The position numbers were made by a program, and so were the translations under genes. The notes under the pieces were generated by a model. The model saw only the letters and a program-made list of their open reading frames with translations. It had not been told where the DNA came from and ran no database searches. A stretch of DNA of 64,000 nucleotides from a virus, in IMG/VR virus record IMGVR_UViG_3300021963_000057, positions 40,627 through 104,626 of that record; one strand, 5' to 3'. Shown here one piece after another: positions 24,466 through 58,653 of this stretch. Numbering within the stretch: the stretch's first letter is position 1; each line of letters begins with the position of its first letter.

Positions 24466-24540
24466 GGGGGTATAACTTAACGGCTAAAGTATCTGGCTTT
24501 TAACCAGGAAATCAGAGTTCGATTCTCTGTGCCCCTACCA
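24466..24540 (+). tRNA. tRNA-Lys (TTT)
   Basis: Loop CTTTTAA, CCA. Confidence 0.92.
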
Positions 24541-46345: not shown

Positions 46346-47548
46346 ATGTTATCTTTCAAATCGTTTTTAACAGAGCAAGAGGATCCTGAAGAAGGCGCCA
46401 GTCGTCAGATTAAACACTTGACGCATGTGGAAGACCGTCCTCTCCAAACAGGTGAAAAAGGTGCAAAGCACGCTATTGCTTCATTATCGGCCGCAGCAGA
46501 ACACATCAAGTCTGGTAATAAATCCTCTGAACTGACCACAAAATATGATGGCTCACCCGCACTTGTTTATGGTCACCACCCAAAGACAGGTAAGTTCTTT
46601 GTTGCATCTAAATCTGCTTTCAACAAAACACCAAAGATTAACTACACACCAAAAGATGTAGATATGAATCATGGCCATGCACCTGGTCTGGCCGCAAAAC
46701 TAAAAGATGCACTGACACATTTACCTAAGATTGCACCTAAAAAGGGTGTTTATCAAGGTGATATGATGTTTGGTACAGACAAAGAAGATAAGAAAAGTGA
46801 AAAGGGTGGTGGTACATCATTTCATCCTAATCCATCCGGTCTAACATACACTGCACATGGAACTCACGAAGGTTCTGTTAAAAAAGCAAAGATTGGTGTT
46901 GTGACACACTTATCCTACCATGGTAAAGATGCAGCAAGTCTAAATGCGTCACATGAAGTCGACCACGAAAACTTCAATAAACATTCGGATGTATTCTCTG
47001 TTGACCCAAGAATGGACACATCAAAAGTACATTTCAGTCCAGAAGAACAGAAGAAATTCAACAAACATATTACAGCAGCTCAAGCAGTACACGATACTCA
47101 TGGTGATGATATGTATGCTGGTACCAGCGCACACCACGGAATTGGCGGTTCATTAGAAACATATATGAATCACACTGTACGTACAGGTGAAGAAGCAAAT
47201 CACAAAAACTTTAAGAATTGGTTGGAAACCAAAAAGAATAAAGATATTGATAAACTTAAAGTTGAAAAGAATAGAAAAACAAAACAAGCCGAACTTAAAG
47301 ATGAACTAGGCAAGATTGAACGTAACAAGAAACATTACAATAATCTTTTCAAAATGCATGGTGAATTACAAAAAGCCAAAGATACACTCATTGGTGTTAT
47401 GAATCAACACCAAGAATTCCAACACACACATGGCGGCGAATCTGCGAATCCTGAAGGATATGTTTTCCATCACGGTAAAGAATCTGATAAATTTGTTAAT
47501 CGTGCGGAATTCTCACGTAGAAATTTTGCTGGAATAAGAAACATATGA
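46346..47548 (+). CDS. Putative ligase-fold nucleotidyltransferase with capsid-targeting-like N-terminus
   Basis: KYDG (motif I), QGDMMF, EGYV..K; starts MLSFKSFLTE. Confidence 0.6.
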   Translation: MLSFKSFLTEQEDPEEGASRQIKHLTHVEDRPLQTGEKGAKHAIASLSAAAEHIKSGNKSSELTTKYDGSPALVYGHHPKTGKFFVASKSAFNKTPKINYTPKDVDMNHGHAPGLAAKLKDALTHLPKIAPKKGVYQGDMMFGTDKEDKKSEKGGGTSFHPNPSGLTYTAHGTHEGSVKKAKIGVVTHLSYHGKDAASLNASHEVDHENFNKHSDVFSVDPRMDTSKVHFSPEEQKKFNKHITAAQAVHDTHGDDMYAGTSAHHGIGGSLETYMNHTVRTGEEANHKNFKNWLETKKNKDIDKLKVEKNRKTKQAELKDELGKIERNKKHYNNLFKMHGELQKAKDTLIGVMNQHQEFQHTHGGESANPEGYVFHHGKESDKFVNRAEFSRRNFAGIRNI

Positions 47549-49326
47549 AAAAGTTTTTAGAAAAATTACACGAAGATGCACAGACCCACACACCTGTGGT
47601 GATGGCATTTGGTCGCATGAATCCACCAACTATTGGCCATGAAAAATTGGTTGATAGAGTAAAACAATTGGCCAAAGACTATAAAGCACCACATCACATT
47701 ATTGTGTCACATTCTATGGACGCAAAGAAGAATCCATTGGAACTTGCAAGTAAAATCAAACACGCAAAAAGATTCTTTCCTGGTGCAAACATTACTGGTT
47801 CAAGTAAAGAGAAACCAACATTTCTACAACACGCAGCTGCATTACATCAAGCAGGTCACGACCACTTGATAATGGTTGCAGGTTCGGATCGTATACCAGA
47901 ATATGAACAAAAACTAAACCAATACAATGGCGAAGGTCCAGGTAAACTATTCAACTTCAAGAAAATTGAAGTCAAGTCTGCTGGCCAACGTGACCCTGAT
48001 GCTGAAGGTGCGGAAGGTATGTCTGCTTCTAAGATGCGTGAACACGCAAAGAGTGGTGATTTTAACTCCTTCAGACAAGGTGTTCCATCACATGTTCCAG
48101 AAAAACATGCGAGAGAATTGTTCCGTGATGTTCGTAAAGGCATGGGACTAAATGAAGATTATAACCGTGGTCTATTCAAAGCAATATTTGTGACTGGTGG
48201 ACCAGGTTCAGGTAAAGATGTTATCATCCGTGAAGCAATTGCTGAAAGTAAAGCAGTTGAACTAAACTCAGTACAAGCATTTGACTTATTAATGGACAAA
48301 CAAAAATTGTCCGAAAAAACAACCGACTATCGTAGAGAAGCTATTCGTAATCGTAGTCCACTAATCATTAACGGTCCTGCTGATGACCACACAAGAATTA
48401 TTACCATCAGAGAAGAACTAGAAGAATTTGGTTATGAAACTGTAATGGTGTTTGTTGATACAACTAACGAAGCCAGTAAAGAACGCAATGAGAAGTTGAC
48501 CAAGTCAATTTCAGAATCAGTTAGATATGACAAGTGGCAATTAGCACAAACTTCAAAAGAAGCATATCGTCAGAATTTTTCCAACTTTATAGATTTCAAT
48601 AATAGTTCATCTTTTGAAGAAATTCAAGAGGATATTAGTGATACTTATGGAAAAATAAATAGGTTCATCGAGGACAAAAATTACAATGAAATTGCGTTCT
48701 CTTGGTTGTCAAGTCGTGGTAAAATTAGTATCACATCATTATTTAAGGAAAATGAAAATGTTAAGAAAAATTCTAGATTTTTTGAAAGTTACAAAACCAA
48801 GCGCACCAGCGGAAGTCCAAGTCTCAACACCGGCACCGGTCCAAGAGCAGACGGTCCAGGAGACAGCACCCCAGATAATCGTGCAGGAGACTCCAACGCA
48901 GACAACATCAAGTGGGACAGAAACAGTAAGCGAGGAAGTTACACCTTCAAAACCTACAGTGAAGAAGGCCCCAGCCTCAAAGTCAGCCCAATCCCCAAAG
49001 AAAGCAACTTCTCCAAGGACAAAGAAAAAGTAAAGCGTAATCGTTTTACCGACTCACCAACTGTTAATCAACGTATGAGAAACATATCGACAGTTGGTCC
49101 AGAATTCGATACACGCCAACAGGGAACAGTATACCCTATGTCTGGTCTAGGCGATGTAACATATAGAGAACATGTAGATTTTAAGAATTTTAGGGAATCA
49201 CATAATGATCCTTCTGATTCAGAAATGGGTGTTTATGGTGTTTTAGGTGGTTCTTCAAATAAAGAACCGATGGAAAACCCAAAAGATAAATTTGGTTCTA
49301 GTTCAATAAAGAAGAAAAAGAAATGA
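47545..49326 (+). CDS. Cytidyltransferase-like domain fused to P-loop kinase-like domain
   Basis: FGRMNPPTIGH, GSDR, MSASKMR; GGPGSGKD. Confidence 0.8.
   Translation: MKKFLEKLHEDAQTHTPVVMAFGRMNPPTIGHEKLVDRVKQLAKDYKAPHHIIVSHSMDAKKNPLELASKIKHAKRFFPGANITGSSKEKPTFLQHAAALHQAGHDHLIMVAGSDRIPEYEQKLNQYNGEGPGKLFNFKKIEVKSAGQRDPDAEGAEGMSASKMREHAKSGDFNSFRQGVPSHVPEKHARELFRDVRKGMGLNEDYNRGLFKAIFVTGGPGSGKDVIIREAIAESKAVELNSVQAFDLLMDKQKLSEKTTDYRREAIRNRSPLIINGPADDHTRIITIREELEEFGYETVMVFVDTTNEASKERNEKLTKSISESVRYDKWQLAQTSKEAYRQNFSNFIDFNNSSSFEEIQEDISDTYGKINRFIEDKNYNEIAFSWLSSRGKISITSLFKENENVKKNSRFFESYKTKRTSGSPSLNTGTGPRADGPGDSTPDNRAGDSNADNIKWDRNSKRGSYTFKTYSEEGPSLKVSPIPKESNFSKDKEKVKRNRFTDSPTVNQRMRNISTVGPEFDTRQQGTVYPMSGLGDVTYREHVDFKNFRESHNDPSDSEMGVYGVLGGSSNKEPMENPKDKFGSSSIKKKKK
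48752..49033 (+). CDS. Possible overprinted gene in +1 frame
   Basis: AAGGA RBS, MLRKILDFLK helix, P/T/E linker, Lys-rich tail. Confidence 0.5.
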   Translation: MKMLRKILDFLKVTKPSAPAEVQVSTPAPVQEQTVQETAPQIIVQETPTQTTSSGTETVSEEVTPSKPTVKKAPASKSAQSPKKATSPRTKKK

Positions 49327-49535
49327 AAAAATTCACAGAATTTGTAAAAGAATCCACACCAGAAACGGCACACCACGATGCTCAAGAAATCAAACGTCAA
49401 AAGAAACATTTGATGGATAAAGCAAAAGAGTATGGTGACCAAGCTGATAGAGAAAAACAATTCGGTCACGGCGGCGCCGCACAAGCTAAAGGTGAAACTA
49501 TGGCTGCAGCTGCAAAAAATATCAAAGGAGCATAA
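49323..49535 (+). CDS. Putative internal head protein
   Basis: MKKFTEFVKE N-terminus like T4 capsid-targeting sequence. Confidence 0.6.
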   Translation: MKKFTEFVKESTPETAHHDAQEIKRQKKHLMDKAKEYGDQADREKQFGHGGAAQAKGETMAAAAKNIKGA

Positions 49536-50321
49536 ATGATTAACTTAAAAAAACAAGATCCTATTGCTGATGCAGTAAAAGAAATTTTACAACAAGAGGC
49601 ACTAAAGGGCAATCAACATAAAATTGATAAAAACAAGAATAACAAAATTGATGCGGAAGACTTTAAACTTCTACGCAAAGAAGAAAATGTTGATGAAGCT
49701 CTGAAAGGCAATCAACATAAGATTGACAAGAATAAAAACAATAAGATTGATGCAGAAGATTTCAAAATTCTTCGTAAAGAAGAAACTGTTGAAGAAGGCA
49801 TCAAAGACATTGCTAAGAAAGCATTCAAAGCTTTGACTGGTGGTTCAGACGAAGACCAACGTAAAGACCTACAACGTAAGATGGGTCTACCACAAACTGG
49901 TCAGAAACCAACTCAAAAAGAAGAAGTTGAACAGATTGATGAACTATCAAAATCAACTTTAGGTTCTTATGTAAAAGGTGCAGCAAGAGATGTTGGTGTT
50001 TCTCGTAAACTTAGTGCTGACTTTGAGAATAAGGCAGATAAGTCTAGAAATGCTAGCTCAAAGACAGCAAATTCTAGTATTTCCAAAAGATTCAATGACA
50101 TAGCCAAAAAGCGTCAGGCAGGCATTGGCCAAGCAGTTGAACGATTAACAAAGGAAGAAGTCATGCCAAAAACATTGAAACAATTCAAAGAAAATGCATT
50201 TGACTGGAAAAAGAAACCAGAACCAACACCAAACGGTGGTTCAGGTGTAAAACAAGGCACACGTTATGGTGGTTCCAAACAAAAAGATGTACCTGAAAAG
50301 GATACTGACGAAAAAAAGTAA
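49536..50321 (+). CDS. Putative internal head polyprotein with tandem repeat; probable -1 frameshift extension to 50467
   Basis: Duplicated EALKGNQHKIDKNKNNKIDAEDFK; A_AAA_AAG before stop. Confidence 0.7.
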   Translation: MINLKKQDPIADAVKEILQQEALKGNQHKIDKNKNNKIDAEDFKLLRKEENVDEALKGNQHKIDKNKNNKIDAEDFKILRKEETVEEGIKDIAKKAFKALTGGSDEDQRKDLQRKMGLPQTGQKPTQKEEVEQIDELSKSTLGSYVKGAARDVGVSRKLSADFENKADKSRNASSKTANSSISKRFNDIAKKRQAGIGQAVERLTKEEVMPKTLKQFKENAFDWKKKPEPTPNGGSGVKQGTRYGGSKQKDVPEKDTDEKK

Positions 50322-50367
50322 ATGAGGCAAAGGGACCAACCAGTCAAGAGGACGGTCCTTTTGTCTC
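50312..50367 (+). promoter_or_regulatory. Programmed -1 frameshift signal
   Basis: A AAA AAG, 5-nt spacer, 14-bp stem GAGGCAAAGGGACC/GGTCCTTTTGTCTC. Confidence 0.72.
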
Positions 50368-50476
50368 TAGTATCAACGATACACACGATTTAAAGCCATT
50401 GAACCACGCAAGGTACTTAGCCAAACAATCGTTAGATAAAGTTCAAAAAGATATGATGAACAAATAAGGCACAATA

Positions 50477-51922
50477 ATGAGCAAAGCACAAACATTAAAA
50501 TCTATAATCAAAAAGGGTGGCGCAGAAAAGTCAACCTTTGGAACCAATCCTTGGGATCCATGGTCCGCAAAAGCAAACATTGCGGAAGATGCTGCTTTGG
50601 ATCAATATTTGACTTCTAGAGGTATCAATCCAAAACATGTCACTAAAGACCAAAAGGTTGCACATTCTAAGATGGGTCAGTTCCTAAAATGGAAAAGAGA
50701 CCATATGTCGGAAGCTGTGGATAGAAAAGACACTATCACTTTTGATATTCCCTTATTGATTCGTGTTTTGGAATTTACTAGAGAAGATTTGAAGTCTGAT
50801 ATCAACCTACACAAGATGGTTGAAAGATTATTGAATATTCGTGGTAAAGGCACATTGACCATGAAAGAATATGGTAGAATTGTCAAAGAAGAATATTCAG
50901 AAGAAGAAGTTGAACAGATTGTTGAAATAACAACTACTGGTTATCACGCAGCTGCTATTAAGAGCAGAAATGATGCTGCTGTTAAAGTCATGTCTAGTAT
51001 GGGTAAAGACAAGGAAGCAAAAACAAAACTTGATGCTCGCAACAGAGGTCTTAAAAGACTAAGTGACAGGACACATGCTGATATGAAGAAGGCCAATTCT
51101 GGTCCACAAAAACCTATAGAACACAAACCAAGTAGCATGAGTTCTCCACAGGCATACTATGCATCCAAGAAACCAGGTGAATATACTGGTGACTCTGTTC
51201 AGTATTCAGATGACACAAATGTTATTTCCGAAATCAGTAGTGCAACTTTAGATAGTTACAAAGAAAAGGCTAAGAAGTCTGCTGATGAATTGTCAGCAAA
51301 AGGTCAATATAGAAAATCTACAAACCGTTGGGGTAACATTATGAAAGCCACCGGTAAACAGATTGATAAAACAACTGCTGATATCAAGAAGTCTTTGAAT
51401 AAAGAAGAAACTGTTTCGGAAGTTGCACCTCCAGGTTTTGAAGGCACTGTTAAAGCCATGAAGAAATACAAGGGTATTGATAATCCTTGGGCACTTGCAT
51501 GGTCTATGAAGAACAAAGGTTACAAGTCTCACAAGAAGTCAGACGGTACACCTAAGAACGAAAATTACCAAGACCCAATGGCCGCTTCGTCAATGCCTTG
51601 TGATTGTGCAAACAGTCCTGATGATGTGGAACCAAAAGATAAGAATAAAAAATTGATTCAAATGTCCAAGTCTGCTCGAATTATTAAAAACCTTTACAAA
51701 AAGAAAGGTATGAAAGAGGAAACTTACGACCATGAAAAGGAAGACAAATCTGTTGCAACATATGGTAAAAAACCAAAAATGCAACAGGTTAGTACAAGTT
51801 TAGAGGAACCAAAAGCCGCAGCGGTCCTAACAGGCGGTACCACCATGACTGGTGAAAAGCGTGATACCATCGAAATCGACCCTATGATGAAGATGCGTAA
51901 ACCAATTTCTGGAAAAAGATAA
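50477..51922 (+). CDS. Putative internal head polyprotein
   Basis: Basic modules separated by acidic (I/V)xE sites. Confidence 0.65.
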   Translation: MSKAQTLKSIIKKGGAEKSTFGTNPWDPWSAKANIAEDAALDQYLTSRGINPKHVTKDQKVAHSKMGQFLKWKRDHMSEAVDRKDTITFDIPLLIRVLEFTREDLKSDINLHKMVERLLNIRGKGTLTMKEYGRIVKEEYSEEEVEQIVEITTTGYHAAAIKSRNDAAVKVMSSMGKDKEAKTKLDARNRGLKRLSDRTHADMKKANSGPQKPIEHKPSSMSSPQAYYASKKPGEYTGDSVQYSDDTNVISEISSATLDSYKEKAKKSADELSAKGQYRKSTNRWGNIMKATGKQIDKTTADIKKSLNKEETVSEVAPPGFEGTVKAMKKYKGIDNPWALAWSMKNKGYKSHKKSDGTPKNENYQDPMAASSMPCDCANSPDDVEPKDKNKKLIQMSKSARIIKNLYKKKGMKEETYDHEKEDKSVATYGKKPKMQQVSTSLEEPKAAAVLTGGTTMTGEKRDTIEIDPMMKMRKPISGKR

Positions 51923-51957
51923 ATACAAAGATAACCCTCGGTTAAAAGGAGAAAAAC

Positions 51958-52635
51958 ATGTCATCTTGGGGAAATAACGATAACGCAGCTAACGCACCAT
52001 ATTGGGCCGTTAACTCAACAATAGTCAATGCAGCTGACGTAAAAGCAGTTGCAGCTGCGCCTACCGCAGCAAACGTTGAATTACTTTATGGTAATACAAC
52101 TGCTGATGTTTATACAACAGGTCAAACTATTGGTTTGTTTGCTGTTGATACACAAGAAGCTTCAGCAACAAATAGAGTACATTCTGGTTGGGTACTAAGA
52201 ACTACTGGTTCTGGCGGCCGTGCCAACCGTGTACAAGAAGAAGTTTTGGTAGCATTAAGTGGTTTGTCTGCTGATGGTGTTGATGGTGATGCACAAGCTT
52301 ACGCTAACGTAACAATCACATTGTCTGGCCCATCTAGTGCATCAATTGTTGCAAATACAGACTACGCAAACTTGGTATCATTCAGTGTAACACCTACATT
52401 GGACGGAAACACCGCTGCAACATTGACATATCAGTGGCAATACAATGCAGGTTCAGGTTGGGCAAACATTCCTGCAAACACAGTGCCAATTCAGTACAAC
52501 GGCGCAACGTCAGCAACATTGTTCGCAAGACCAAAGACTACAGCAAATACAGGAACAGTATATCGTGTTACCGTTACTGCTGCAGACCAAGGTGTGTCAG
52601 CAACATCTGCAAACGCAACTATCACTATAACCTGA
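51958..52635 (+). CDS. Virion structural protein with Ig-like C-terminal domain
   Basis: TYQWQY..YRVTVT..SANATITI; ATAAATA upstream, strong RBS. Confidence 0.7.
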   Translation: MSSWGNNDNAANAPYWAVNSTIVNAADVKAVAAAPTAANVELLYGNTTADVYTTGQTIGLFAVDTQEASATNRVHSGWVLRTTGSGGRANRVQEEVLVALSGLSADGVDGDAQAYANVTITLSGPSSASIVANTDYANLVSFSVTPTLDGNTAATLTYQWQYNAGSGWANIPANTVPIQYNGATSATLFARPKTTANTGTVYRVTVTAADQGVSATSANATITIT

Positions 52636-52639
52636 TAGA

Positions 52640-52660
52640 AGGGGCTTCGGCCCCTCTTTA
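52640..52660 (+). terminator. Intrinsic terminator
   Basis: AGGGGC-TTCG-GCCCCT followed by CTTT. Confidence 0.65.
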
Positions 52661-52662
52661 AT

Positions 52663-53049
52663 ATGTTTGATGATTTGAATGAAGACAATTTTATGATGTA
52701 TGCTATGAAATGCTATACGTCACCACATTGTATTATGTCGGAATTTGAGGGAGATATCAAAAGAACAAAATACCTGAAAAGGTTGTTTCGTAGATACAAG
52801 GTAACTAAATCCCTCAAAGAACGACTAATTCTAAACCATATCATTTTATTGAATAATGTTTTTGGTACGGAAGCAACCGCAAGAATATTGTTCTATAAGA
52901 CTGATGAACGAGATTATGATATTCTAAAAACTTTTTTAGATTACCTTGACATTATGCCCGACTTTGTTTATGGAATTAATGGAAAAACTATATCATCATC
53001 CGATTTACCACTAGATATGAATGTCGCAGAGATATTAAGAAACATATGA
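52663..53049 (+). CDS. Conserved T4-like hypothetical protein
   Basis: LKERLILNHIILLNNVFG. Confidence 0.75.
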   Translation: MFDDLNEDNFMMYAMKCYTSPHCIMSEFEGDIKRTKYLKRLFRRYKVTKSLKERLILNHIILLNNVFGTEATARILFYKTDERDYDILKTFLDYLDIMPDFVYGINGKTISSSDLPLDMNVAEILRNI

Positions 53050-53699
53050 AAAAATTCAACGAATACATCAACGAAGTAAAAGAACCAACAGGTGACTTAA
53101 AAAAGGCTTGTTGGACTGGTTATACTGCTGTCGGTACAAAAAAGAAAAACGGTAGAACCGTTCCTAATTGTGTTCCGGAAGAAGTTGAAATAGACGAAAA
53201 CCATATTGCCATCGCCATGGGTAAAGAGATGGATGATGAAGGTAGTATGATTATGAATCAGTTGGATCAAATGGAACGTTCCATCAACATGTTGCGTGGA
53301 GTCGTTAAGGATCCAAACATGCAAGTACCTGCATGGGTTCAGTCTAAAGTTACATTAGCAGCAGATTACATCGAAACTGTTGCTGGTTATATGTCTAGTA
53401 AAAACGAAGAAGTTGACCTAGAAGAAACTGCTGCATGGCAACGCAAAGAAGGTAAGAGTGAATCTGGTGGTTTGAATGCCAAAGGTGTTGCAAGTTATCG
53501 TAGAGAGAATCCAGGTTCTAAACTAAAAACAGCTGTCACAACTAAACCATCAAAATTAAAACCAGGTTCTGCTGCTGCAAATCGCCGTAAATCATTCTGT
53601 GCTAGAATGTCTGGTATGAAGAAAAGATTAACTTCAGCAAAAACTGCTAATGATCCAGATTCACGTATCAATAAGTCTCTACGTAAGTGGAATTGCTAA
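53046..53699 (+). CDS. Putative internal head polyprotein
   Basis: MKKFNEYINE; CWTGY..VPNCVP; AWQRKEGK..SFCARM modules. Confidence 0.7.
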   Translation: MKKFNEYINEVKEPTGDLKKACWTGYTAVGTKKKNGRTVPNCVPEEVEIDENHIAIAMGKEMDDEGSMIMNQLDQMERSINMLRGVVKDPNMQVPAWVQSKVTLAADYIETVAGYMSSKNEEVDLEETAAWQRKEGKSESGGLNAKGVASYRRENPGSKLKTAVTTKPSKLKPGSAAANRRKSFCARMSGMKKRLTSAKTANDPDSRINKSLRKWNC

Positions 53700-53944
53700 T
53701 GGTAACATTCAAAGAATTTATTACAGAAAAGGGTAGATGTTGGACTGGTTACAAACCTGTTCCTGGTAAAAAACCATATTCTGACGGCAGCTGTGTGAAA
53801 GAAGATGGTATGGCCGGTGCACCAGCAAATGCTGTGGGTGGTGGAAACATTGCTGGTTCAGGCGGAGCTGGCGGAGAACCTGGAGTTTCTAAGAAAAGAA
53901 ATCCAGTAATGTCATTCTTCAAACGTAAACAGCAAAAGATGTAA
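53699..53944 (+). CDS. Putative internal head protein
   Basis: MVTFKEFITE; CWTGY..SC module. Confidence 0.6.
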   Translation: MVTFKEFITEKGRCWTGYKPVPGKKPYSDGSCVKEDGMAGAPANAVGGGNIAGSGGAGGEPGVSKKRNPVMSFFKRKQQKM

Positions 53945-57639: not shown

Positions 57640-58653
57640 ATGTCCGTTTTTATTGATAGAACCTTTTTGCTGAGGGTATCCCCGAAGCTTCAAAAATTCA
57701 CACAGAAGAAAGATAACCTGTATAATTTCAGGTGTCCACTCTGTGGCGATTCAAGCAAGAACAAAACCAAAGCCCGTGGTTATGTTTACGAAAAAAAGAA
57801 CAACTATTTCTATATGTGCCACAATTGTGGTGCATCCACTTCCTTTTACAATTTCCTGGAGAAGGTAGATTCAACCCTAGTTAAAGAATATGCACTTGAG
57901 AGGTATAAAAATGGTGAGCAAGGCCGTGATAACTACGTCAAACCGACTTTCGAGGAACTTCACACGGAAGTACCTAAATTTAAGAGGTCTTTGGGAATCC
58001 CATCGGTCCACTCTCTACCAGAAGAACATTATGCTAAAGTGTATGTTAAGTCACGCAAAATACCCGAGAGATTTCATTCGGATTTATACTTTGCAGAAGA
58101 TTTCAAGAGTTTCGTGGAATCGCTCAAAATTGAAAAAGAAGGACTCAAAGAGGATGATCCACGGCTTGTAATTCCTTTCTATGACGAAGATAAGAACCTT
58201 GTGGCATTTCAAGGTCGTGCTTTAGGTGAATCTAAACTAAGATATATCACCGTAAAGACAGACAAAGATAATCACAAGTTATTCGGGACTGACCGGATCG
58301 ACACGGAACAGATGATTTATGTTGTGGAAGGTCCTATTGACTCTATGTTCTTGGAGAATGCCGTAGCGACTGCGGATTCTAATCTGATGGCTGCATCCAA
58401 ACACTTTGATAAGTCTAAAATTGTCTTGGTGTATGATAATGAACCACGGAACAAAGAACTACATAAACAGATGGACAAGGCTATCGAGGAACACTACAAC
58501 GTGGTAATCTGGCCAGAAATGATTGAAGAAAAAGATATAAATGACATGGTTTTGAATGGATTCTCACCAGATGAAATTCAAGATATCATAAGTAAACATA
58601 CCTTTGTGAATTTGAGAGCAAAGATGGAATTTATTAATTGGAAAAAAACTTGA
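57640..58653 (+). CDS. gp61: DNA primase
   Basis: CPLCGDS, CHNC, EGPIDS, DNEPRN, KDIND. Confidence 0.97.
   Translation: MSVFIDRTFLLRVSPKLQKFTQKKDNLYNFRCPLCGDSSKNKTKARGYVYEKKNNYFYMCHNCGASTSFYNFLEKVDSTLVKEYALERYKNGEQGRDNYVKPTFEELHTEVPKFKRSLGIPSVHSLPEEHYAKVYVKSRKIPERFHSDLYFAEDFKSFVESLKIEKEGLKEDDPRLVIPFYDEDKNLVAFQGRALGESKLRYITVKTDKDNHKLFGTDRIDTEQMIYVVEGPIDSMFLENAVATADSNLMAASKHFDKSKIVLVYDNEPRNKELHKQMDKAIEEHYNVVIWPEMIEEKDINDMVLNGFSPDEIQDIISKHTFVNLRAKMEFINWKKT

Follow-up and report, generated by a model that had tools for sequence, protein, structure and literature searches.

A probable programmed -1 ribosomal frameshift adding a conserved C-terminal module to a modular protein of T4-like phages

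The window analysed here is the 3' 64 kb (64,000 nucleotides) of a 104.6-kb viral contig, IMG/VR record IMGVR_UViG_3300021963_000057, which is estimated to be about 62% complete. Judged from its sequence, the phage is T4-like, with a DNA polymerase about 50% identical to cyanomyovirus homologs; it also encodes a UvsX-like recombinase, a DnaB-like helicase, a primase, a ribonucleotide reductase, a thymidylate synthase and an endolysin. The gene under study, 49536-50321, sits between replication/nucleotide-metabolism genes and lysis genes, outside any recognised structural module. At its 3' end, an initial annotation had proposed a programmed -1 ribosomal frameshift that extends an internal head protein. 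The features of the gene and of its 3' junction are the following:

49536-50321, plus strand: zero-frame gene encoding the short isoform of 261 amino acids (from the open reading frame [ORF] list)
50298-50302, plus strand: Shine-Dalgarno (SD)-like AAGGA, a candidate upstream stimulator 9 nt 5' of the heptamer
50312-50318, plus strand: slippery heptamer A_AAA_AAG in zero-frame phase, read directly
50319-50321, plus strand: zero-frame stop TAA abutting the 3' end of the heptamer, invariant in relatives
50324-50367, plus strand: predicted stem-loop with arms at 50324-50337 and 50354-50367 and a 16-nt loop
50318-50467, plus strand: -1 frame extension of 49 codons plus TAA, delimited by translation, by the ratio of nonsynonymous to synonymous substitution (dN/dS) and by homologous modules
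50396-50458, plus strand: stretch encoding residues 27-47 of the extension, a predicted amphipathic helix at its C-terminus (AlphaFold2, alignment A1)

The gene ends in GAA AAA AAG TAA, and a spacer of 5 nt (TAAAT, 50319-50323) separates the heptamer from a stem of 14 bp, three of which are G-U pairs. RNAfold gave region 50298-50400 a minimum free energy (MFE) of -31.2 kcal/mol; dinucleotide shuffles averaged -16.1 +/- 3.0 (z -5.05), and 0 of 200 were as good. The -1 frame, shut on its 5' side by a TGA at 50306-50308, is open from 50318 to a TAA at 50465-50467, past which the next gene begins at 50477. Its earliest ATG, GTG or TTG is a TTG at about codon 28. The extension peptide reads VNEAKGPTSQ...MMNK, and the predicted long isoform has 310 amino acids with the junction ...DEKK-VNEAKGP.... 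Direct reading bore out the positions first given for the heptamer, for the AAGGA at 9 nt and for the 14-bp stem at 5 nt; likewise, translation and a scan for starts agreed with the initial annotation that the -1 frame has 49 codons, lacks a usable start and reaches the next gene. Two other candidates at this junction were rejected: the zero-frame ATG at 50322 (23 codons) as a gene, this codon being CTG in many relatives, and the hairpin as a terminator, the scan having found no terminator-like site and the T-run falling inside the 3' arm.

The 104.6-kb genome contains AAAAAAG 37 times, four of them in phase within ORFs. The heptamer by itself is within chance expectation, and it is conservation that supplies its significance. 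The other in-phase copies lie at 53099-53105 and 53138-53144 in a DUF6321 gene (53046-53699), a family on which a literature search found nothing, and at 57792-57798 inside the primase gene (57640-58653).

Relatives' DNA was drawn from IMG/VR and JGI metagenomes, loose DNA-pattern matches being filtered by translation. The frameshift-form set comprises at least 94 loci from many metagenomes, representing 32 distinct 177-nt contexts. In all of them GAA (or ACA) AAA AAG TAA is invariant and is followed by a -1 frame of 49-54 codons, and the codons flanking the heptamer vary among the 32 contexts while the heptamer and the TAA stay fixed. One relative (L213) reads ACA AAA AAG, which leaves a run of six A and an intact heptamer. 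An upstream AGG is present in all 32 distinct relatives (AGGA in 29), at a spacing of 9 or 6 nt. This AGG falls within CAG or AAG codons, both minority choices in the genome (18% of its Gln codons and 31% of its Lys codons, respectively); in related proteins where the extension is fused in frame without an A-run, the AGG is lost and CAA is used. Its retention despite codon bias was counted in favour of a frameshift. The stem is conserved as well: across the 32 relatives, 12 of its 14 pairs are the same in every sequence and one alternates between A-U and G-U. Third-codon sites are variable at 2 of 8 positions in the stem arms versus 28 of 33 downstream (Fisher p=0.002), and synonymous variation is suppressed within the arms. 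Conservation of heptamer and stem was among the checks that the initial annotation had named, and both were found conserved. Its other concern, that the A-run might carry an indel error, found no echo in independent assembled contigs: DNA contigs from independent samples (X2, at a depth of about 430, and X4) show the run without an indel, and contigs of two RNA libraries spanning it show no inserted or deleted base, though contigs drop rare variants. As a side observation, in one relative (L214, Ga0255146_1019124) an in-frame stop interrupts the main ORF within its conserved GGSGVK.G motif, with the heptamer and the 49-codon extension intact; this could reflect misassembly or a defective copy.

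Substitution patterns point in the same direction. By the Nei-Gojobori method, dN/dS of the extension is 0.136 in the -1 frame, compared with 8.99 and 1.76 in the other two frames, and the variable sites number 9, 6 and 33 at codon positions 1, 2 and 3, respectively, in the -1 frame. Most variants in the RNA-library contigs lie at third positions of that frame or are conservative in it. None of the 32 distinct relatives has a start codon in the -1 frame before the junction or close to it. Of the three frames of the extension, only the -1 frame shows purifying selection. Because of its dN/dS and its codon-position pattern, this frame appears to be translated and selected. On the comparative data as a whole, a real recoding event is very likely.

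Based on its genetic context, the module encoded by the extension occurs in three forms. Its layout is V-x-E, then (A/G/S)(K/R).P, ...PF... and ...P(L/M)..A(K/R).LA(K/R).S(L/M)..(V/I).... In the first form, as in the window, the module lies behind a frameshift site. In the second, it is fused in frame without an A-run to related proteins (L025/26, L053, L062, L066, L248; P0058, P0092 and others), which join it precisely at the K-K-V-x-E junction, and it also stands in frame in otherwise different proteins of the L019 and L064 types. In the third, it is a small separate ORF with its own ATG, which overlaps the upstream stop as ATGA, and a leader of 10-13 residues, MK(T/S)FKEF...(V/M)E. These standalone ORFs are the following:

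L007:3864-4046: standalone module, leader MKTFKEF...VVE, similar to the T4 capsid targeting sequence (CTS)
L016:4206-4385: standalone module, same CTS-like leader
L027:4239-4418: standalone module, same CTS-like leader

The run-less fusions are the strongest argument that the extension would be a true C-terminal domain of this family. Family members also include A10-G-TAA junctions (L032, L183, L192, L273) and in-frame A9-G-TAA junctions (L023, L147, L169). The latter carry GAT AAA AAA AAA GTA ACT (L023:3900-3925, L147 and L169), the mirror image of the window layout: an mRNA lacking one A would restore AAG TAA and give the short isoform. In L273 and L274, the junction reads GAA GAA AAA AAA AAG AAT TGA, which places the zero-frame stop one codon past A10-G, and a diverged tail module follows in the -1 frame.

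The predicted downstream structure differs among these junction forms. The comparison was made over distinct 56-mers, MFE being given in kcal/mol and as means:

A7 frameshift, 17 distinct sequences: mean MFE -20.1, mean z -4.4
A6 frameshift, 1 distinct sequence: MFE -27.7, z -7.3
A10 frameshift, 3 distinct sequences: mean MFE -9.0, mean z -0.1
A9 fused, 3 distinct sequences: mean MFE -8.2, mean z -0.4
Run-less fused, 14 distinct sequences: mean MFE -9.9, mean z -1.4
Standalone ORF, 3 distinct sequences: mean MFE -16.8, mean z -3.2

A strong predicted hairpin thus tracks the A6/A7 frameshift form and is absent in the fused and A10 forms. A hairpin 3' of the run can impede a ribosome but not a polymerase that has yet to transcribe it, which favours a ribosomal shift.

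Taken together, we put the probability that the gene carries a programmed -1 ribosomal frameshift of the dnaX/insertion sequence (IS) type, as the initial annotation had read it, at about three in four; the classification gains from the heptamer's invariance at 94 loci, from purifying selection confined to the -1 frame and from relatives in which the module is fused or standalone. Most ribosomes would halt at the TAA at 50319-50321 and release the 261-residue protein. A fraction would slip back one base on A_AAA_AAG, the tRNA-Lys of the P and A sites re-pairing from AAA-AAG to AAA-AAA. The stem-loop 5 nt downstream would aid the slip; base-pairing between 16S rRNA and the upstream AGGA would probably help too, and the neighbouring stop codon may do so. 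Shifted ribosomes would resume at GUA and add 49 residues, giving the 310-residue isoform; for the added part, the prediction is a linker of no confident structure and then a basic amphipathic helix of 21 residues. That the two isoforms are made in a set ratio is a reasonable inference.

Several observations weigh against a ribosomal shift. The remaining stem pair is A-U in 5 of the 32 relatives (the window included) and an A.A mismatch in the other 27, and the stem shows conservation without covariation, with no double compensatory change. The spacing of the SD-like element (9 or 6 nt) is at or under that of dnaX, which is roughly 10 nt. Standalone-ORF relatives, which need no frameshift, keep a stem at the equivalent codons with a different arm sequence, and the hairpin may serve another or an older role. 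Finally, a single A added by RNA polymerase would yield an identical protein, and a low level of such addition is still compatible with the contigs.

This last point is the core of the alternative that survives best, programmed transcriptional slippage, in which RNA polymerase would add one A in the A7 run and a minority of mRNAs would carry the extension in frame. Runs of 9-10 A are a classical substrate of polymerase slippage (PMC5009743), and the family offers both hairpin-poor A10-G-TAA relatives and the in-frame A9-G-TAA relatives in which loss of one A creates the AAG TAA stop. Slippage is a live option for these A9/A10 relatives, is likely in the A10 ones, and could contribute at the window site. 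The run is, however, only seven A in the window clade and six in L213, short for efficient slippage (usually at least 9 A/T); the clade-specific conserved hairpin sits 3' of the run, where it is unable to act on a slipping polymerase; and the site-spanning RNA-library contigs lack an inserted base, though rare variants would be hidden in them. Slippage as the explanation of the window site therefore seems improbable to us, and because of the hairpin, the six-A run of L213 and the AGG kept against codon bias, ribosomal frameshifting is favoured over it for the A7 clade.

A second alternative is that the 49-codon frame is translated separately, its ribosomes reinitiating past the TAA or using a non-canonical start, with no fusion protein. 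The module is its own ORF in L007, L016 and L027, so it can function unfused. Against this, the stretch between the TGA at 50306 and about codon 28 contains no ATG, GTG or TTG, either in the window or in any of the 32 distinct relatives; the 50322 ATG belongs to the zero frame and, as said, is often CTG; the 10-13-residue leader of the standalone versions is missing in the window clade; and fused relatives join the module exactly at K-K-V-x-E. Separate translation is accordingly very improbable. That the frame goes unexpressed, as a homopolymer sequencing or assembly error or as a decaying remnant of a fused tail next to an unrelated hairpin, is scarcely credible: homopolymers are error-prone, a 1-nt change from fused relatives could yield the window state and the stem could be an mRNA-stability or processing element, but A7-G-TAA was assembled at 94 loci from many studies, a deep independent DNA sample shows no indel, a -1 frame dN/dS of 0.14 with synonymous sites near saturation (28/33) excludes decay, and the scan returned no terminator-like site.

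The initial annotation had further supposed that the proposed ribosomal shift may be tuned by a phage tRNA-Lys(CUU). This part did not stand, since ARAGORN found no tRNA-Lys(CUU) in the window or in the whole genome. Among the 28 tRNAs of the genome, the sole tRNA-Lys has the anticodon UUU:

24466-24540, plus strand: tRNA-Lys, anticodon UUU (ARAGORN, window and whole genome)

No heptamer shifts more readily than A_AAA_AAG under E. coli-type decoding, in which tRNA-Lys(UUU) is the only Lys tRNA (PMC5009743), a setting that may not match the phage's host. This tRNA pairs better with AAA than with AAG, hence the shiftiness of A_AAA_AAG (PMC5009743), and the phage tRNA-Lys(UUU) would, if anything, sustain the shift.

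The protein itself offers few matches. The short isoform has a conserved N-terminus, MINLKK...ILQQE, two EF-hand/dockerin-like DKNKNNKIDAEDF repeats and a conserved C-terminus, ...GGSGVKQG.RYGGSKQKD.PE..T(D)EKK. Searches of metagenomic protein sets gave 2510 homologs, and 93 of the best 120 end in EKK. Searches of Pfam and PHROGs gave nothing for the extension and, for the main protein, only borderline EF-hand/dockerin matches, with Pfam scores near the cut-offs. In the ESM Atlas, all hits were viral hypothetical clusters below 0.9, and the model of the main protein was poor (predicted local distance difference test [pLDDT] 0.60); this protein is predicted to be mostly disordered. In the extension, AlphaFold2 predicted a confident helix at residues 27-47, with mean pLDDT values of 94 and 87 for the final two blocks of 10 residues. 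Residues 1-26 reached block means of about 58-68, a moderate confidence, and their only regular secondary structure is a helical turn of 3 residues (21-23). No match to the region was found by blastn among cultured phage genomes. In tblastn searches of cultured phages with the protein and a fused homolog, only an internal module matched, in a few cyanophages and in Caulobacter phage Cr30; neither the tail module nor the junction had a match in any of them.

Whether this is a head protein was weighed on its genomic surroundings. The T4 CTS is MKTYQEFIAE (PMC8442874), and a six-frame motif scan of the whole 104.6-kb genome for CTS-like leaders found exactly five ORFs, all flanking the focal gene; the motif was defined after these five genes had been seen. 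The elements concerned are the following:

1568-2020 (genome 42194-42646), plus strand: match to a T4 gp21-type prohead protease (Peptidase_S77, PF03420, E 5e-34, above cut-off)
46346-53944, plus strand: block with T4 CTS-like leaders
46346, plus strand: CTS-like leader MLSFKSFLTE
47545, plus strand: CTS-like leader MKKFLEKLHE
49323, plus strand: CTS-like leader MKKFTEFVKE
53046, plus strand: CTS-like leader MKKFNEYINE
53699, plus strand: CTS-like leader MVTFKEFITE

The five genes include a DUF6267 protein and a cytidylyltransferase/AAA protein. The stop of the 70-residue CTS-like gene 49323-49535 abuts the ATG of the focal gene as TAAATG (49533-49538), an arrangement that suggests translational coupling within the block. 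Proteins of the block and their relatives consist of shuffled short modules divided by hydrophobic-x-Glu motifs.

At the junction itself, the Glu of V-x-E is invariant in 13 of 13 aligned forms, in proteins that are Glu-rich overall, and hydrophobic-x-Glu motifs also occur at other module boundaries across the family. The conserved leading V-x-E of the extension suits the cleavage rule of the phage's T4-type prohead protease, and the frameshift could bring, in a set fraction of the protein, a detachable C-terminal peptide module into the prohead. The case for a head role rests on the gp21-type protease, the five CTS-like flanking genes, the CTS-like leader of the standalone tail module, and the invariant junction Glu together with the boundary motifs. 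Counted against it were the different conserved N-terminus, the lack of a match to a known head-protein family, and the position outside any recognised structural module. A CTS-like N-terminus was found in none of the focal protein and its best 120 homologs, about 105 of which start with MI(N/D)L(K/R)K.... From these surroundings, the label of internal head protein given by the initial annotation is plausible for the focal gene, and we would give roughly even odds to a packaged, protease-processed protein.

A broader and rather unlikely extrapolation is that A-run-G-TAA would be a reusable two-way recoding joint at the module boundaries of these T4-like phages, setting the dose of a small helical, protease-released capsid peptide. 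Where the run is A7 accompanied by a hairpin, or A10, most of the product would be the short form and a minority would be extended; where it is an in-frame A9, most would be the long form and a minority would be truncated. As a separate observation, unrelated phage gene families of IMG/VR also end in A9-A10 followed by G TAA (L090:1564, L105, L156, L174 and L185; L093/L136; L101/L145; L088; L110; L124). These junctions continue into a -1 frame of 57-128 codons, with V-x-E first and no start near the junction, and L101/L145 also have a downstream hairpin of -26 kcal/mol. The search pattern imposed the V-x-E reading and had no chance control, so that these V-x-E junctions, taken from among the matches listed, are leads only.

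If confirmed, the locus would provide a clean, widely conserved -1 frameshift for T4-like phages of estuarine, freshwater and marine waters. Gene callers miss the extension (the 93 of the best 120 homologs are annotated to EKK), so that the 49-residue module goes unannotated in most of this family of about 2500 members. The family offers a natural comparison, in which the module is reached via a frameshift, a fusion or its own gene and the hairpin accompanies a short A-run but not a long one, and it would be useful for studying how recoding signals arise and get replaced. Should the head-protein reading be true, the dose of a capsid cargo would be set by recoding.

Among known systems, the T4 internal proteins (IPs) IPI-III share with the focal gene a T4-like phage with a gp21-type protease, CTS-type leaders (here on the five flanking genes and on the standalone module), and lysine-rich modular proteins with hydrophobic-x-Glu at module boundaries. 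They differ from it in that the focal N-terminus is MINLKK...ILQQE, and no sequence homology to T4 IPs was found. To our knowledge, no T4 IP uses a frameshift, and we know of no comparable -1 frameshift in T4-like phages; a literature search found none reported in a T4-like internal-protein locus. The A10/A9 junctions of relatives resemble known slippage sites (Thermus dnaX, Shigella spa13, IS elements), unlike the window, which has a run of only seven A and a downstream hairpin. The G/GT tail assembly chaperones of lambda and many tailed phages likewise have a conserved -1 shift near the 3' end of a gene and a minor extended isoform in a set ratio (PMC5009743). However, the focal gene adjoins CTS-like genes rather than lying upstream of a tape-measure gene, it has no chaperone homology, and the lambda heptamer is G_GGA_AAG; context and sequence both differ, and the site is therefore not a G/GT case.

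The closest counterparts are found in bacteria and their mobile elements. In the IS3/IS1-family orfA-orfB arrangement, the upstream frame has A_AAA_AAG or A_AAA_AAA close to its end, a structure follows the heptamer, and the shift yields a C-terminal fusion (PMC5009743), although the focal locus has no transposase, inverted repeats or mobile-element context and would add a 49-residue peptide instead of an enzyme domain. E. coli dnaX (tau/gamma) has the same A_AAA_AAG, a stem-loop a few nt 3' and an SD-like element 5', and makes two isoforms from one gene by re-pairing of tRNA-Lys(UUU) (PMC5009743), the last two likenesses being ones that we infer here from sequence. In dnaX, the shift leads to a near-immediate stop and a shorter product, whereas here it is the zero frame that stops and the shift that would add 49 residues; the proteins are unrelated, and the SD-like element is set 9 or 6 nt from the heptamer in this family. 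With its heptamer, spacing, downstream structure and selected -1 ORF, the site is well supported as a new example of the dnaX/IS-type class of -1 frameshifts, and not as a new kind of mechanism.

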